From Bacteroidaceae bacterium (GTDB taxonomy: Bacteria; Bacteroidota; Bacteroidia; Bacteroidales; Bacteroidaceae): DNA of 64,000 nucleotides. Below the pieces are notes generated by a model. That model did not search any database, was not told the DNA's origin, and saw only the letters and a program-made list of their open reading frames with translations. This document shows positions 17,683 to 23,035 of the stretch, piece after piece. The DNA lies in assembly GCA_017546785.1 (NCBI GenBank), contig JAFYRW010000031.1, positions 3,151 to 67,150 of the forward strand, read 5' to 3'. The translations under genes were made by a program, and so were the position numbers. Within the stretch, counting starts at the first letter, position 1, and every line of letters begins with the position of its first letter.

Positions 17683-17698
17683 TATATTAAGGCATTAT

Positions 17699-17732
17699 AA
17701 AAAAGAGAGCAACAATTGTTGCTCTCTTTTTT
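17699..17732. terminator. bidirectional rho-independent terminator
   Basis: The palindrome aaaaaagagagcaaca/tgttgctctctttttt has A and T runs on both sides. Confidence 0.75.
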
Positions 17733-17760: not shown

Positions 17761-19431
17761 TTACTCTTTTCCTTTTGTCATCATCCAGCCTGCACTCTGT
17801 TTCACAGCAACAGTTGTTGCGTTGGTATCATCGTTGCTTATTGCGTGCAATGTACCGTCGGACAGCGTAGCAGATGTTGCTGATATAGCTTTATCGTAGG
17901 CAAGGAGACGAGCATTTCCTGCAGTCTGTGTATAGGTAATACAGGTTACTGCTCTCGACTTTTTGTCGTCGGTATCGGCGTTGTAATTCTCGCCGGTAGA
18001 CAACAATGTAACATCAGCATTGTTGATTGTTACGTTAGCATCGCTGTTTATGGCCTTTGAGCCTTTGCCTGTACATTTTATGGCAACATTACCGCCTTTT
18101 ATATCAACATTGCCGCAGCTCTTGATACCTCCGGCTGCTGTTGTGTCACTGTTGGCTATAAAGTATACAGAGCCCTCGGCAATACCCGATATTTTGCCAC
18201 CGTTGATTGTTACGGCACCATCGCTGTTCACTATCTTTGAACCGTTGCCCTTTACCTCGGCCTGTATAACTCCGTTGTTCAATATAAAATTGCCGGTAGT
18301 CTTTATTGCCGAAGCCTTTTCGCCAGTGGTGCATATCTTGATGAATCCACCATTGATTGTTGCGTTGGGGGTAATATTGGTGTCACTCTTCTCGTACTGA
18401 ACCTTTATGGCCTCTCCTACTGTGTTGAATGTAAGATTGCCGGCCTCTATCAGCACATAGCCTTTACCGCAGTCTACTCCGTTACCATTGGCATTTACGG
18501 TTATTTTGGGCGATGAATTCTTTGTGCGTCCCACACGGAACAGGTCATTTGTGTTGAATCCGTCCTTTGCCGCCTCGGTAATGTTTATATTACCTTCGCG
18601 TATGCGGATGTAATCATCGCTGCATATGCCGTGACCACCGAGACTCTTTACGTTAAGAGTACCCGATCCGCTGAATATGAGCTGTCCCTCGCTGAAGAGA
18701 GTGCCTTTCTGGTCTTCTCCTTCTTTTGAGGGAGAGGCATACACTGCACCGTCGCAAAGAGAGTTTGTGGTATTTTTTCCTATAGAGAAATAGACAGTCT
18801 TTCCACTCTGAATGTTAATCGCAGGGCCGTTAGGGTTCGTCAGATTAAGGTTGTTCATCTGTATCATAAACTTCTTGGTGCTATATATTTTTATAGAACC
18901 ATTGCTACAGGTACCTTTAATCTGATAACGCATCTTGCCTTTGCTTGAGTTTATTGTAATATGAGTGTTATCCTCTTTTGTAATTGTAACATTATCAATA
19001 GTACTAGGAGAGTATACTACTCCCGATTCGTTGAATGTGATTATTACTGTCGATTCGTAGGAGAAATTTTCGTGAAAATCGCCCGACTCGTCGATAAGTT
19101 CATCGGTTATTATAACCTCATCCTTTTCGTAGTAATTGTCTGCGTCGGCCTCATTAAATACAACATCAAAGTCAGTTGAATAGTCGAGTAGTGTGCTACT
19201 TAATGGGAGTGCTGCAACAATGCTGTCTGTATTTGCTGTTGCGAAACTATGACATACATTTCTCTTGTTGTTGAATTGTACTAATTTCTGTTCGGGAACA
19301 AAGGTAATATCTTCGTTCTCCGAAACGGGTATCTCAACAGCTGAGCCGTCCTTGTTGCATATATAATATGATTGCGCTTGTACACAAAATACTGTTGCAA
19401 GCAGTGTTAGAGCCAATATTATTCTTTTCAT
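17761..19431 (-). CDS. secreted beta-helix protein, Cthe_2159-like (carbohydrate/polyanion-binding family)
   Basis: The ORF is 556 aa with a signal peptide (VQAQS). It shows periodic G-x-I/V-x-I/V..GG turns (GHGICSDDYIRIREGNINI, NGVDCGKGYVLIEAGNLTF, INGGKISG, IKGGNVAIK) typical of parallel beta-helices. Its start overlaps the upstream gene by 4 nt (ATGA). Confidence 0.65.
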   Translation of the reverse strand: MKRIILALTLLATVFCVQAQSYYICNKDGSAVEIPVSENEDITFVPEQKLVQFNNKRNVCHSFATANTDSIVAALPLSSTLLDYSTDFDVVFNEADADNYYEKDEVIITDELIDESGDFHENFSYESTVIITFNESGVVYSPSTIDNVTITKEDNTHITINSSKGKMRYQIKGTCSNGSIKIYSTKKFMIQMNNLNLTNPNGPAINIQSGKTVYFSIGKNTTNSLCDGAVYASPSKEGEDQKGTLFSEGQLIFSGSGTLNVKSLGGHGICSDDYIRIREGNINITEAAKDGFNTNDLFRVGRTKNSSPKITVNANGNGVDCGKGYVLIEAGNLTFNTVGEAIKVQYEKSDTNITPNATINGGFIKICTTGEKASAIKTTGNFILNNGVIQAEVKGNGSKIVNSDGAVTINGGKISGIAEGSVYFIANSDTTAAGGIKSCGNVDIKGGNVAIKCTGKGSKAINSDANVTINNADVTLLSTGENYNADTDDKKSRAVTCITYTQTAGNARLLAYDKAISATSATLSDGTLHAISNDDTNATTVAVKQSAGWMMTKGKE

Positions 19432-19889
19432 CGTTTCAGAAATTTAACGGTTCTACAATTTGCTTGTAACATATATACTCCATTGGGTAGGTGCGCAATG
19501 TTTATGCAACCATTGTTGCTTAATGCTCTCTGTGAAAGCACGATGCAACCGCTGAGGTTGTATATGGCAATTATTTCTCCCGCAGGGCAATTAACCGAAA
19601 TGTCGTCTGATGATACAAAATTCAAAAGTCTGCCATTGTCGGTAACATTCTCTACTCCTGTCTCGGTAATAGTGGTAGTAATACGCAGAATATCGGCCAT
19701 CTGATTGCTGATACTCTCTCCTTTATCAGACAGTATATTTACCTTGTTGCCATCGAATGTAATCTTGCGGAAATTCTTCCATAGCATAGTCTGTGTGTCG
19801 CCACTAACCTTTTCTATAGTTATTTGCGACTGCGACATTGCCGGGATTGTCAGCAAGGCGAATGTGAAAAATATTATTAATTTTTTCAT
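19428..19889 (-). CDS. small T9SS substrate (about 60-aa cargo plus C-terminal sorting domain)
   Basis: The ORF is 153 aa with a signal peptide. The C-terminal roughly 70 aa end ...IAIYNLSGCIVL...HLPNGVYMLQANCRTVKFLKR, which resembles the Por_Secre_tail type. Confidence 0.6.
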   Translation of the reverse strand: MKKLIIFFTFALLTIPAMSQSQITIEKVSGDTQTMLWKNFRKITFDGNKVNILSDKGESISNQMADILRITTTITETGVENVTDNGRLLNFVSSDDISVNCPAGEIIAIYNLSGCIVLSQRALSNNGCINIAHLPNGVYMLQANCRTVKFLKR

Positions 19890-19898
19890 ACAGTTATA

Positions 19899-20777
19899 TT
19901 AAAGGTCGAATGAGTATCCCACTCCTATTGCGTGTATGGCAGGGCTGCTGCTTGAGTGGTTGTCCTGATATAGATAGTAGAGCGAAATTTCGTTGTCCTT
20001 GTCTATCTTATACTCGGCACCGATGCGGTAGCGTAACTTGTCGTGGAACTGCCATTTGTCGAGACGAGTGAAAAGCTCTACTGACGCAAAAGGTGTTACG
20101 GGGCATTTTTTGATATCCCATTTCGCAGTGAGACGTGAACGCAATGTGGTATTGTGCTTGGCATCCTTCAATTCTGCCTCGCTTTTGGTGGGCTTGTAAG
20201 GATCGTTGGGGTCGTCGTTGGTGATGTACTCCGAATTGGGGTCGTCGCTGTCTTTCTGGAATGGTCTGTATTGGTCCTCGTATACCAATGCGCTGTGAGT
20301 GTACTGATACTGTACTCTTTCGCGCAGGCTGAATTTTACGCGTCCAATCTTCCAGCTTGCACTCAAAGAGGCAACGAGACGGTCGCGCTGCTCCCAATAA
20401 GAACGGTCTATATTGTAGCTGTAAATCTCGTTGTTGTCGTTGTCAAGGCCTACAAAATCTTTTATTTTCTTCTCCTCGGCATTGTGCGACTGAATGTAGA
20501 TATATCCAATATCGGCTTTTAACCACGAAAGAATGTCGTAGCTAAAATCTACGCCAATTGAACGGCGGTCCATCTGAGAAACACCCTCAATGCTTCGAAG
20601 CTCTCCCTCGAATCCTATTTTCAGGCGGTCGGTCAGTTTCTTACTTGCATTTAAGCTTGTCCATATTCCAAAATCGTCGCACTCGCTCTGAGCCTGTGCT
20701 GCCGAAAATGAGAATAGTATAACTGTTGCTACTGCAATCAGTCGTGCAAATTTGTTATTCTTTAATCTTGAATTCAT
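19899..20777 (-). CDS. predicted outer-membrane beta-barrel protein, DUF2490-like
   Basis: The ORF is 292 aa with a signal peptide (AAQAQS). It has repeated amphipathic beta-strand pattern and the terminal strand GVGYSFDL. It overlaps the upstream gene by 23 nt. Confidence 0.55.
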   Translation of the reverse strand: MNSRLKNNKFARLIAVATVILFSFSAAQAQSECDDFGIWTSLNASKKLTDRLKIGFEGELRSIEGVSQMDRRSIGVDFSYDILSWLKADIGYIYIQSHNAEEKKIKDFVGLDNDNNEIYSYNIDRSYWEQRDRLVASLSASWKIGRVKFSLRERVQYQYTHSALVYEDQYRPFQKDSDDPNSEYITNDDPNDPYKPTKSEAELKDAKHNTTLRSRLTAKWDIKKCPVTPFASVELFTRLDKWQFHDKLRYRIGAEYKIDKDNEISLYYLYQDNHSSSSPAIHAIGVGYSFDL

Positions 20778-21516
20778 CGCTGGGGGCTTTTGTAATAGTA
20801 TCTACTGTGTTGATTGACTTGTTAGATGAGCGGTAATACATCTTGATAATAGCTGCATCTTTCAAAAAGTCTATTCCACCAACCTCTACTTTAACAATGT
20901 CGAGTCCTGTGCGTTTCTTTAAATCCTCGATAAGTTCCTCTTTTTTGTCGGGGGTAATAAGGTTTACATTATCGTATTTAATAACCTTGTACGACAAATG
21001 GCTAATGAAGATAGTACTTTCGCACATCCATATAGAGAAGATGAACAAAAGGTTTGCAACAACCATTTCGGAATAGCTTAACTCCTCGATTACCAATCCG
21101 TTGATAGCACTCATCGCAATAATGATGAACAGATAGGTCATCTCTCTGATGGCTACCTGCTCGGTGCGGTAACGTATGATGCTGAAGATAGCAAAAAGTC
21201 CGAGTGCGAATCCTGTCTTCAACTTTACTCCACCCAATAGGTAGATGAGCAAGAAAATGCTGATAGAGATTAGTATGAAAGTGAAGAAGAACTCTCCGCG
21301 TTTACATTTTGGGTAGTAGAAGCAGCGTGCAACGATACCTACGAAAAAGAGGTTGATGAAGAATCCTAAAACAAGGTTCCACACTCCGGGAAGGTTAATT
21401 ATCTCACCAGCCAGACGTGCGCTCTCGCCGGTAGTGATAAAGTCTTCTCCTAAACTGGCGAGAGTGTTTGCAGCCTGTGCACCACCTGCCAAAAAAGTTG
21501 TAAAAATGTCCATCAT
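20755..21516 (-). CDS. DUF4956-family inner-membrane protein
   Basis: The ORF is 253 aa with 4-5 TM helices. It has the FAIFSIIRYRT...REMTYLF block and a C-terminal soluble domain. Confidence 0.65.
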   Translation of the reverse strand: MMDIFTTFLAGGAQAANTLASLGEDFITTGESARLAGEIINLPGVWNLVLGFFINLFFVGIVARCFYYPKCKRGEFFFTFILISISIFLLIYLLGGVKLKTGFALGLFAIFSIIRYRTEQVAIREMTYLFIIIAMSAINGLVIEELSYSEMVVANLLFIFSIWMCESTIFISHLSYKVIKYDNVNLITPDKKEELIEDLKKRTGLDIVKVEVGGIDFLKDAAIIKMYYRSSNKSINTVDTITKAPSDEFKIKE

Positions 21517-21528
21517 ATTAGTAGTTTT

Positions 21529-22296
21529 TTATTGTTTATGCTCTAATCTGTCTATGAATTTAAGTCTCTCCTTAAAATTGTTCCTTTTAAGATTTTTGTT
21601 TGTGCGTGCGCTTCCTATGCAGTATTTGCTGAATCCCGAGCGCTTTATTCTAAGGTCGCGTATGATGGCGAGTGCCGGTGAAGGAACGTTGCCGTCGCGC
21701 TTTAATTCTATTATCGCCACTCGTCTGAGCTCGTCTTTGCCGTCGGTGGCAAAGCTGTGGAATCTTAAGTCAAAATCTATGGTGAGACGTTCGGTTTTTT
21801 CGTAATTGACCAATGTTATTCTGCTGAACCTGTTTTCGCAGGTAGGAATCAATTCTTCGAGATTATACCACGCGTGTTTGGCAAGAAACGGTACAACGTT
21901 CTCCTGTTCGGCCTTTAGTGTATTGACACTTTCGACGTTGATTCGTTTCTTTTTTGTGCGGCCGTGGTTGTTCTTGTTCTTTACCTCGAGAAAGGTGTCG
22001 TTGCTGTCGAGATATGTTCTTACTCGTATCTTCTCGCGTCTGGTCTTGCCGTTGTGATGCATTGTGTACATTGTATAATCGGCAGTGTCGAGATATACTG
22101 TGTGATACGATGCAATACGCGTGTCATTGTGCTCCTGAATGTAATATTTGCCCTGAACGGCAAGTAGAAAGGCATTCAGTTGCTCCAGTGTCGCAACAAA
22201 TTTCGTGTCGGTTCTATTCATAAGTTTTATACCCGACATATCCTTTAGCGATATTGGTGGCAATAGCTTAACGTTCTCTGTAATCTGATTTCTCAT
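21529..22296 (-). CDS. VTC-domain protein (polyphosphate polymerase-type triphosphate-tunnel fold)
   Basis: The motifs are R-TDTKF, KIRVRTY...FLEVKNKN..RTKKKR, RITLV, LTIDFDL and IIELK. These alternate basic and acidic tunnel strands as in Vtc4/CYTH folds. I prefer the start at 22296 (MRNQI) because a -7 box overlaps the longer ORF start at 22371. Confidence 0.7.
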   Translation of the reverse strand: MRNQITENVKLLPPISLKDMSGIKLMNRTDTKFVATLEQLNAFLLAVQGKYYIQEHNDTRIASYHTVYLDTADYTMYTMHHNGKTRREKIRVRTYLDSNDTFLEVKNKNNHGRTKKKRINVESVNTLKAEQENVVPFLAKHAWYNLEELIPTCENRFSRITLVNYEKTERLTIDFDLRFHSFATDGKDELRRVAIIELKRDGNVPSPALAIIRDLRIKRSGFSKYCIGSARTNKNLKRNNFKERLKFIDRLEHKQ

Positions 22297-22368
22297 ACGC
22301 TTGTTCGTGTCTCTTGCGGCACTGTCCTGTGTCCGCAATAATTCGATATTAGCATAAATTATTTGGAA

Positions 22369-22376
22369 CAAATATA
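22369..22376 (-). promoter_or_regulatory. -7 box TATATTTG (VTC operon)
   Basis: The plus strand reads CAAATATA, which is TATATTTG on the minus strand. It lies 73 nt upstream of the 22296 start codon. Confidence 0.4.
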
Positions 22377-22408
22377 GTAAAAAAAATAAATAAATTGTCG
22401 AATTGTGG

Positions 22409-22416
22409 TAAATTTG
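22409..22416 (+). promoter_or_regulatory. -7 box TAAATTTG (HD gene)
   Basis: This matches TAnnTTTG 80 nt upstream of 22496 and is divergent from the VTC operon promoter. Confidence 0.35.
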
Positions 22417-22495
22417 TATTCGGCAATGTGATGAACGGTTATAATTTAGCTGTCTGCAGCCCTCTTTTGTAAATAAAAATTTAATAAATGCAGCA

Positions 22496-23035
22496 ATGGA
22501 TTTTCAGAAAATAATAGACAAATATTATCCTTTGGAGAATGAGCAGAGACGAATCTATATGACTCACGCACGTAAGGTCGCTGATCTTGCTCTCGATATT
22601 TCTCGCCGTCATCCTGAACTCAATGCCGACGATGCATTCATAGAGGAGGCTGCAATGCTCCACGATCTTGGGATGTTCCTTGTCGATGCTCCCCGCATCC
22701 ATTGCTTTGGCGATGCACCCTATATTTGCCACGGATACCTTGGCGCCAATCTTCTGCGTAACGAAGGCTTTGAGCGTCACGCCCTTGTGTGTGAACGACA
22801 TACGGGGACGGGCCTCTCAAAAGAGCTTATCGAATCATCGGGCTGGCCGTTGCCCTGTAAGGATATGCTGCCTCTTAGCATAGAGGAGCAGATTATCTGT
22901 TTCGCCGACAAATTCTATTCAAAGACAAAGTTTCTCGAGGTGTCGCGAACAATTGAGCAGGTCGAAGAGAGTATGCGCAAAATATCGGAAGAGTCGGTAG
23001 AGAAAATCCGAAATTGGGCAGGATTATTTTTATAA
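22496..23035 (+). CDS. HD-domain phosphohydrolase
   Basis: The ORF is 179 aa with H...HDLG metal-binding motifs (MLHDLGMF). Confidence 0.8.
   Translation: MDFQKIIDKYYPLENEQRRIYMTHARKVADLALDISRRHPELNADDAFIEEAAMLHDLGMFLVDAPRIHCFGDAPYICHGYLGANLLRNEGFERHALVCERHTGTGLSKELIESSGWPLPCKDMLPLSIEEQIICFADKFYSKTKFLEVSRTIEQVEESMRKISEESVEKIRNWAGLFL

Follow-up and report, generated by a model that had tools for sequence, protein, structure and literature searches.

A conserved five-gene VTC-DUF4956 cluster in Bacteroidales, a candidate envelope-associated phosphate-polymer module

Organization of the gene cluster

We report on five consecutive minus-strand open reading frames (ORFs), g1 to g5, that form one packed cluster at positions 17761-22296 of a 64,000-nucleotide (nt) stretch of DNA from a Bacteroidaceae bacterium (assembly GCA_017546785.1, contig JAFYRW010000031.1, positions 3,151 to 67,150), which was analysed as a whole and is referred to below as the window. 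The genes encode a VTC-domain protein, a DUF4956 membrane protein, a DUF2490 outer-membrane barrel, a small protein with a sorting domain of the type IX secretion system (T9SS) and a secreted parallel beta-helix, and they are bracketed by a promoter-like box and a palindrome (Table 1). The four junctions given in the initial annotation, a 12-nt gap (g1/g2), a 23-nt overlap (g2/g3), a 9-nt gap (g3/g4) and a 4-nt ATGA overlap (g4/g5), are exact in the ORF coordinates; its five family assignments (VTC, DUF4956, DUF2490, Por_Secre_tail and Cthe_2159) all correspond to Pfam matches above the curated cut-offs, and its -7 box and palindromic terminator were both located where it had placed them.

Table 1. 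Features of the cluster (window coordinates)
Feature	Position	Strand	Basis and assignment
g1, VTC-domain protein, soluble, basic, 255 aa	21529..22296	-	Pfam VTC 1.3e-29; Vtc4-like tunnel enzyme, putative polyphosphate polymerase
g2, DUF4956 inner-membrane protein	20755..21516	-	Pfam DUF4956 1.3e-51; AlphaFold2 (AF2) model with five transmembrane helices and C-terminal ACT-like domain
g3, DUF2490 outer-membrane beta-barrel with signal peptide	19899..20777	-	Pfam DUF2490 1.1e-28; AF2 model
g4, T9SS mini-protein, 153 aa	19428..19889	-	Por_Secre_tail/TIGR04183; signal peptide, N-module of ~55 aa, linker, type-A C-terminal sorting domain
g5, secreted Cthe_2159-type parallel beta-helix, 556 aa	17761..19431	-	Pfam Cthe_2159 2.5e-45; SPI-type signal peptide, acidic N-extension
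Bacteroidota-type -7 box TATATTTG	22369..22376	-	Sequence read; 73 nt upstream of the g1 ATG; putative function
34-nt perfect palindrome AAAAAAGAGAGCAACAATTGTTGCTCTCTTTTTT with flanking A and T runs	17699..17732	.	Sequence and fold energy; probable bidirectional intrinsic terminator

The start of g1 was corrected, since the TTG at 22371 chosen by the ORF finder falls within the -7 box; the ATG at 22296 gives a protein of 255 aa and was preferred because the homologues are 254-255 aa long and align from that residue. Upstream of the cluster TATATTTG is the sole minus-strand TAnnTTTG, and the only other minus-strand match in the 17.7-22.5 kb interval lies inside g5. The motif is mildly enriched across the window (62 matches vs 46.7 expected) and by itself is therefore weak evidence for a promoter; no clear -33 TTTG element was seen with the box. 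The fold energy of the palindrome is -23.8 kcal/mol (z = -6.2), a stability matched by none of 200 shuffled sequences, and given its position between g5 and the convergent pyrH gene it probably terminates transcription of both. A scan for sigma-70-type promoters and terminators was uninformative in this organism and missed the palindrome.

The 199-nt intergenic region 22297-22495 carries two divergent -7 boxes, TATATTTG toward the operon and TAAATTTG (22409-22416, plus strand) directed at an HD-domain gene at 22496-23035. This divergent gene was considered as a sixth member and rejected, being adjacent in the closest relatives only. In Rfam the region 17697-17732 gave sub-threshold matches (~30 bits vs gathering scores of 48-56) to plastid psbA 3'-untranslated-region hairpin families; membership was rejected, as the likeness is that of a generic hairpin and lies below the gathering score. 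With no matches in a PHROGs search and only these sub-threshold Rfam matches there is no sign of phage origin or of an RNA leader. The window is ordinary Bacteroidales chromosome, with genes for LptD, TamB, GlnS, FTHFS and glycoside hydrolases.

Conservation of the cluster in Bacteroidales

One genome per GTDB species was scanned using a 25-sequence VTC alignment as query, which resulted in 80 Bacteroidales loci with 48-75% identity to g1, labelled as Prevotella-type Bacteroidaceae, Paraprevotella, Alloprevotella, Bacteroides, Muribaculaceae and Paludibacteraceae. The ORFs of these loci were called and mapped by hidden Markov models seeded from the five window proteins. The nearest relatives of the window are uncultured 'Bacteroidaceae' metagenome-assembled genomes (MAGs) from herbivore hindguts, and the genes flanking the cluster in the window (HD, LptD_2, UDG, AsnA, pyrH and BirA) recur in the eleven closest loci only. 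Conservation was counted in 59 other species-level loci, whose flanks are unlike those of the window and whose downstream sequence is complete. In these, the g1-g2 pair is retained in 59/59, g3 in 58/59, g5 in 51/59 and g4 in 40/59. The complete arrangement g1-g2-g3-g4-g5 is present in 40 loci, g1-g2-g3 in seven, g1-g2-g3-g5-g5 in six, g1-g2-g3-g5 in five and g1-g2 in one. Since gene order is kept in 40-59 of the 59 loci where the flanks differ, the cluster is conserved independently of synteny and is a real unit, in which g1, g2 and g3 form the core and g4 and g5 an outer layer. Moreover, close relatives repeat the 23-nt g2/g3 overlap, and the ATGA g4/g5 overlap recurs not only in these but also in distant loci; these recurring overlaps suggest that the genes are translationally coupled.

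A contig with a Bacteroides helcogenes-type DUF4956 protein carries the genes as VTC-DUF4956-DUF2490-Cthe_2159, without g4, and in B. thetaiotaomicron a DUF4956-DUF2490 pair is adjacent (BT3498-99); a literature search on BT3497-3500 returned one transcriptome table entry only. No glycosyltransferase or polysaccharide genes accompany the cluster in the neighbourhoods of the examined loci. On the B. helcogenes-type contig the four-gene cluster is followed by a same-strand His_kinase/LytTR two-component pair (L087:11633-13679), a possible dedicated regulator. After loci having g1-g2-g3 only, in Muribaculaceae, the next same-strand gene is surE (L056:4959-5738, L077:12437-13201), an adjacency that may be inherited synteny because just two related loci were examined. 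The SurE protein, a nucleotidase, is reported to act also as a short-chain exopolyphosphatase.

A Vtc4-like enzyme

The g1 protein matches Pfam VTC (PF09359) at profile positions 1-233 of 235 with 103.8 bits against a cut-off of 23, and the strand motifs IRVRTY, LEVKNK and IIELK, on which its original assignment to the triphosphate tunnel family was based, were all located. It has an isoelectric point of 9.8 and a net charge of +16, and neither signal peptide nor transmembrane segment; the family comprises 3751 clusters at 50% identity (E <= 0.001), and the NCBI names for these VTC proteins read 'polyphosphate polymerase domain-containing'. Across 150 aligned representatives with 35-58% identity to g1, residues R28, D30, K32, R87, K89, R91, R93, E104, K106, K108, K116, R118, R159, E169, R170, D174, E197, K199, S223, K224 and Y225 are invariant or at least 90% conserved. 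Searched against the PDB, the profile of this alignment matches only the Vtc2 (4.7e-5) and Vtc4 (2.8e-4) structures. Single-sequence PDB matches of g1 and g2 ('Bagel' designed beta-propeller proteins and IL-34) were discarded as spurious, g1 requiring the profile to reach Vtc2 and Vtc4.

Profile alignment to the Vtc4 structure 3G3Q pairs g1 K32 with Vtc4 K200, R91/R93 with R264/R266, K106 with K281, K116 with K294, R159 with R361, R170 with R373, E197 with E426 and S223/K224 with S457/K458, while F157 takes the place of Y359 (Phe for Tyr). Positions were counted along the printed alignment, and native Vtc4 numbering was obtained by adding 185 to that of the 3G3Q chain, cross-checked with 8I6V. 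The mapped Vtc4 residues are those reported to line the tunnel (Hothorn et al. 2009). All ten Vtc4 tunnel residues tested are kept in g1, each of them invariant or at least 90% conserved, so that the loss of tunnel Lys/Arg residues that would speak against the assignment is not seen. Judged from these residues, g1 is a Vtc4-like triphosphate-tunnel enzyme and a putative polyphosphate polymerase.

The DUF4956 membrane partner

The match of g2 to DUF4956 (PF16316) spans the entire profile (175.2 bits, positions 1-169 of 169). An AF2 model based on 120 homologues (predicted local distance difference test, pLDDT, 72.7) has five transmembrane helices (42-71, 74-94, 98-117, 123-143 and 148-166) and a C-terminal beta-alpha-beta-beta domain (174-229). 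When the model was searched against the PDB using Foldseek nothing was obtained at E <= 0.001; only the C-terminal domain has a resemblance, to ACT-type domains (AcuB, probability 0.87-0.92 over 59-79 columns). The positive-inside rule would place two basic loops (PKCKRGE after the first helix and RYRTEQVAIRE between the third and fourth) and the ACT-like domain on the cytoplasmic side. The RYRTE..REMTY stretch between the third and fourth helices is invariant and the most conserved stretch of the DUF4956 family across phyla, and would be a natural candidate for a docking or anion-handling site. We consider g2 to be the membrane partner and treat a role as 'conduit' as a hypothesis rather than as a finding.

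Residues 1-40 of the window g2 belong to an acidic N-terminal extension of approximately 25-40 residues that is shared with its closest relatives and poorly modelled (pLDDT ~50). Most g2 homologues (220-230 aa) are without it, and some close relatives are longer, 280-332 aa.

The outer-membrane barrel and the secreted proteins

For g3, which matches DUF2490 (PF10677) with 100.6 bits, the AF2 model (pLDDT 85.4, predicted template modelling score 0.78) consists of a signal helix followed by 14-15 beta elements in an all-beta barrel. Foldseek relates it to generic outer-membrane barrels with a probability of ~1.0; the best superpositions are those on the plugged 12-strand autotransporter beta-domains of NalP, BrkA and EstA (TM-score 0.42-0.50), followed by FadL and VDAC, and AlgE is among the weak structural neighbours at rank 48. 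The outer-membrane barrel first proposed is thus backed by the family, the signal peptide and a closed modelled barrel, with the barrel type being a generic one of 12-14 strands. The overall net charge of mature g3 is -6, and the invariant residues of its subfamily are, by strand alternation, largely inward arginines (R61, R71, R133, R152, R154, R213, R215 and R249). Such arginines would fit an anion pore and equally an internal salt-bridge network.

The g4 protein scores above the cut-offs for Por_Secre_tail (PF18962; 1.6e-6, 28.8 bits vs 27) and NCBIfam TIGR04183 (28.3 vs 23), and with a visible signal peptide and an N-module of ~55 residues it agrees with the fusion of a small cargo to a T9SS domain described earlier. 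The N-module is conserved in at least 40 loci. Among the large window ORFs examined there is no component of the T9SS machinery. The beta-helix protein g5 matches Cthe_2159 (PF14262) with 155.2 bits and the sequence of the Cthe_2159 crystal structure 4PEU with an E-value of 1.6e-6. A related module of ~50 residues, without a Pfam family, opens both g4 (residues 21-75, 19665-19829) and g5 (residues 21-70, 19222-19371; hhalign probability 87.7%, E 3.4e-6, 51 columns), and may mediate pairing of the two proteins or binding to a common partner.

The anchoring of g5 varies with g4. Where g4 is present g5 has a plain signal peptide. Where it is absent, the g5 copy that comes first after g3 is made as a lipoprotein, and its Cys leads into an acidic stretch, e.g. 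SCVNDDTDMDD, that resembles the surface-export signal of Bacteroidota lipoproteins (L032, L047, L051, L053, L065, L066, L071, L073 and L075; also L018, L021, L024 and L078). In Muribaculaceae the second g5 paralogue carries an N-terminal dockerin-like calcium-binding GDVNGDGEVNISDVN repeat (L047:11003-11756, L051:13593-14942, L053:13503-14852 and similar), and in two g4 homologues (L070:12504-12932, L072:12341-12748) a dockerin-like C-terminal part replaces the T9SS domain; these repeats imply a cohesin-like partner in Bacteroidales. Taken together, the sequences indicate modular anchoring, in which the device that holds g5 is swapped while the beta-helix is kept. Most simply read, g5 would need to be kept on the cell surface, with g4 serving as a tether that depends on T9SS.

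The VTC-DUF4956 pair in other phyla and in the literature

Outside Bacteroidales, annotated plasmid and chromid records were searched using tblastn. Deinococcus taeanensis has the order CotH-VTC-DUF4956 (L084:6575-9385), and in Deinococcus sp. QL22 VTC-DUF4956 adjoins a HAD acid phosphatase and a phnDCE transporter (L092:5635-11667). In Aminobacter, Nitratireductor and Shinella the order is DUF4956-VTC-(PiT)-'phytase-like esterase' with unrelated flanks in the three genera (L085:7391-9703, L086:7396-11436, L094:5391-7717), PiT lying in between in Nitratireductor; an S8 peptidase and an extracytoplasmic function (ECF) sigma/anti-sigma pair are near two of these three loci. The universal element is the VTC-DUF4956 pair, beside a lineage-specific gene for a secreted, or expected to be secreted, protein: CotH, the phytase-like protein, or DUF2490 with Cthe_2159. 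The pair is also often near phosphorus genes. Such neighbours fit an extracytoplasmic, phosphate-related product, and they give the strongest indirect argument that we have for a pair acting on, or delivering something phosphate-related to, the outside of the inner membrane.

Gram-positive sets of cotH, polyphosphate polymerase and DUF4956 genes adjoin pel loci (Whitfield 2020, PMC7112168), and a VTC/'tubulin-like' membrane protein/CotH set has been noted in published work on Clostridium perfringens. In Streptococcus intermedius (SIR_1592-1594) Pel level and aggregation changed when the DUF4956-type or CotH genes were deleted, but not upon deletion of the VTC-domain gene; the authors left the mechanism open and state that they saw the three genes together in pel loci only (PMC12345266). 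From the loci above, the VTC-DUF4956 pair extends far beyond pel loci, being present in Bacteroidales, Deinococcus and Alphaproteobacteria. That bacterial VTC-DUF4956 pairs have no established function, as was remarked at the outset, agrees with the searchable literature save for these partial S. intermedius genetics.

Discussion

We propose, tentatively and with the balance tilted somewhat against it, that the five genes constitute one operon for an envelope-associated phosphate-polymer module of synthesis, export and display. Specifically, g1 at the cytoplasmic face of g2 would polymerise the gamma-phosphate of ATP into polyphosphate, and the chain would be passed to the membrane partner g2 and exit the cytoplasm, as in the yeast VTC complex. 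The g3 barrel, with conserved inward arginines that would suit an anion, would let the chain reach or cross the outer membrane, and g5, tethered via the small adaptor g4 or, in other lineages, through a lipid anchor of its own or a module of dockerin-like type, would act on or hold the product at the surface, probably via bound divalent cations. The core would be g1 and g2, possibly with g3, while g4 and g5 would be a lineage-specific outer layer, the corresponding genomic position being taken by CotH in Gram-positives and Deinococcus and by the phytase-like protein in Alphaproteobacteria. Of the envelope-spanning export-and-display model in the initial annotation, the families, the operon and the tunnel residues stand, and the model is a reasonable reading, although two of its four steps, the conduit and the polyanion binder, have no support at present.

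Several observations weigh against the proposal. For g1, the searchable literature contains no published polymerase activity of any bacterial VTC-domain protein, and deletion of the VTC-domain gene in S. intermedius gave no aggregation phenotype (PMC12345266). The g2 model matches neither the yeast VTC complex 8I6V, which is present in the Foldseek library, nor any solved channel or transporter, and there is no Pfam match to DUF202 at E <= 10; DUF4956 shows no likeness in sequence or fold to the membrane part of yeast VTC, and its reading as a Vtc1-like conduit is unsupported. The g2 plan, a transmembrane bundle with an ACT-like domain, is closer to the regulator MgtC than to a channel. For g3, matches are to generic 12-14-strand barrels only, the best being plugged autotransporter domains, and the excess of 24 Lys/Arg over 16 Asp/Glu on its lumen side is derived from strand alternation and not from coordinates. 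With respect to g5, which was first thought to be surface-anchored and to bind polyanions, a surface signal of its own is not supported, since the Pfam search found no T9SS domain and only a plain signal peptide is present, and surface exposure in this genome would thus depend on a g4-g5 interaction. Its beta-helix core is acidic in 66/78 homologues (median net charge -7.5, isoelectric point 5.2), and any binding of polyphosphate would consequently go through bound cations; the sole characterised Cthe_2159 relative binds cellulose and pectate/polygalacturonate. Finally, genes for Cthe_2159 and DUF2490 are also found away from VTC, including on 'plasmid' records; accordingly, VTC genes come with these partners, but the two families as a whole are not tied to VTC.

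The more far-reaching claim is that Bacteroidales have a PPK-independent machine with Vtc4-like synthesis, passage through DUF4956 and DUF2490 and surface display by a beta-helix and its adaptor, the VTC-DUF4956 pair being either the forerunner or the bacterial equivalent of the eukaryotic VTC complex and, more generally, where extracellular bacterial polyphosphate comes from. This we consider rather unlikely.

An account based on acquisition and storage of phosphate without export we hold to be unlikely. Polyphosphate made by g1 would stay inside, g2 would be an MgtC-like anchor or sensor whose ACT-like domain binds a small-molecule signal, g3 would be an uptake pore, and on the cell surface g4 and g5 would capture a phosphorus-rich or anionic plant polymer (pectin, phytate complexes), with flow being inward. 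Uptake and hydrolysis genes in other phyla (PiT, phnDCE, acid phosphatase and phytase-like proteins), the MgtC-like plan of DUF4956, the binding of pectate and cellulose by Cthe_2159, the herbivore gut MAGs that are the closest relatives of the window, and SurE after the three-gene form in Muribaculaceae are all in keeping with such a role. However, sequence homology between DUF4956 and MgtC was undetected (hhalign probability 0.1%), and a storage enzyme would have no need of an outer-membrane barrel of its own, or of secreted partners whose genes overlap and keep a strict order. Moreover, the yeast VTC system, the only one studied, couples polyphosphate synthesis to translocation out of the cytosol.

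Alternatively, no polyphosphate is made at all, and the tunnel enzyme uses another triphosphate or phosphorylates a surface glycan or protein, the cluster shaping an extracellular matrix or adhesin layer in which g5 is a lyase-like carbohydrate binder. The triphosphate-tunnel superfamily does include hydrolases, cyclases and RNA triphosphatases (PMC4641920), the Gram-positive homologues are embedded in pel exopolysaccharide loci together with a secreted CotH kinase, deletions there change Pel level and aggregation, and Cthe_2159 has been likened to PL9 pectate lyases. Yet g1 is well above the Pfam VTC cut-off, its profile finds only Vtc2 and Vtc4 among PDB sequences, the Vtc4-specific residue set is kept, including the equivalent of K200, which is required for polymerase activity, and glycosyltransferase or polysaccharide genes are absent beside the Bacteroidales cluster. 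The first strand of g1 also reads R-x-D-x-K in place of the acidic ExExK motif of the hydrolases. All considered, we find this alternative quite improbable. Chance adjacency or inherited synteny of the five genes, with no joint function, would accommodate the syntenic neighbourhood of the closest relatives and the Cthe_2159 and DUF2490 genes that occur alone elsewhere, but is hardly credible given the order kept across loci with unrelated flanks, the overlapping reading frames, and the single promoter-like box and single terminator.

Bacterial polyphosphate is conventionally attributed to PPK1 and PPK2. The VTC-DUF4956 pair is already known, and the Gram-positive triad has been discussed in two papers; in the literature searched we found no description of the five-gene Bacteroidales form, the DUF2490 link or the g4/g5 adaptor arrangement, nor any experimental function, and the five-gene form appears to be undescribed. 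The operon offers a concrete, genetically tractable hypothesis with a named part for each envelope layer. The cluster is found across gut and rumen Bacteroidales, common genera included. If true, the hypothesis would give bacteria a second polyphosphate synthase class, account for polyphosphate outside the cytoplasm and inform the question of how the eukaryotic VTC complex arose. It would also suggest a role in the ecology of gut and rumen for polyphosphate at the cell surface, which chelates cations strongly and is active on the host. If wrong, the conserved module would still mark some other envelope function. Our main reason for interest is the combination of the cluster in Bacteroides-type genomes with a 2026 preprint on Bacillus cereus, which describes extracellular polyphosphate made by a non-PPK route; the enzyme was not identified there, and the species is stated to lack a VTC4 homologue.

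Comparison with known systems

With the eukaryotic VTC complex (Vtc4 with Vtc1/Vtc2/Vtc3; 3G3Q, 8I6V) the cluster shares the VTC Pfam domain and the catalytic tunnel residues of g1, as well as the obligatory pairing of a soluble catalytic domain with a membrane protein. In contrast to Vtc4, g1 is a separate polypeptide of 255 aa that consists of the VTC domain only and lacks an SPX domain, its profile reaches Vtc2 and Vtc4 with E-values of only 5e-5 and 3e-4, and instead of DUF202/Vtc1-type segments with three transmembrane helices its partner is a DUF4956 protein (five transmembrane helices and an ACT-like domain) with no likeness in fold. The Gram-positive cotH/VTC/DUF4956 sets of pel loci (PMC7112168, PMC12345266) have the same pair beside a gene for a secreted protein, whereas the Bacteroidales form has neither CotH nor pel genes and adds the DUF2490 barrel, the T9SS mini-protein and the Cthe_2159 beta-helix. 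Synthase-dependent exopolymer systems (alginate Alg8/44-AlgE, Pel, PNAG PgaCD-PgaA and cellulose BcsAB-BcsC) follow a similar logic of cytoplasmic-face polymerase, inner-membrane partner and dedicated outer-membrane barrel for an anionic polymer; the likeness is a functional analogy only, as the cluster is without glycosyltransferase, periplasmic tetratricopeptide-repeat scaffold and cyclic di-GMP receptor, and the polymer porins, with 16-18 strands, are far larger barrels than g3.

The plan of five transmembrane helices and a C-terminal ACT-like domain is common to g2 and the MgtC family (PF02308), and the DUF4956 homologue of S. intermedius has been described as MgtC-like (PMC12345266). Homology was tested and not detected: the DUF4956 profile compared with E. 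coli YhiD, a member of Pfam MgtC (5.4e-39), gave the hhalign probability of 0.1% mentioned above, and there was no Pfam MgtC match at E <= 10. With Cthe_2159 of Clostridium thermocellum (4PEU), g5 has in common the family match and the secreted beta-helix; it differs in belonging to an operon with a VTC enzyme rather than to a cellulolytic setting, and in having an extra N-module that it shares with g4.

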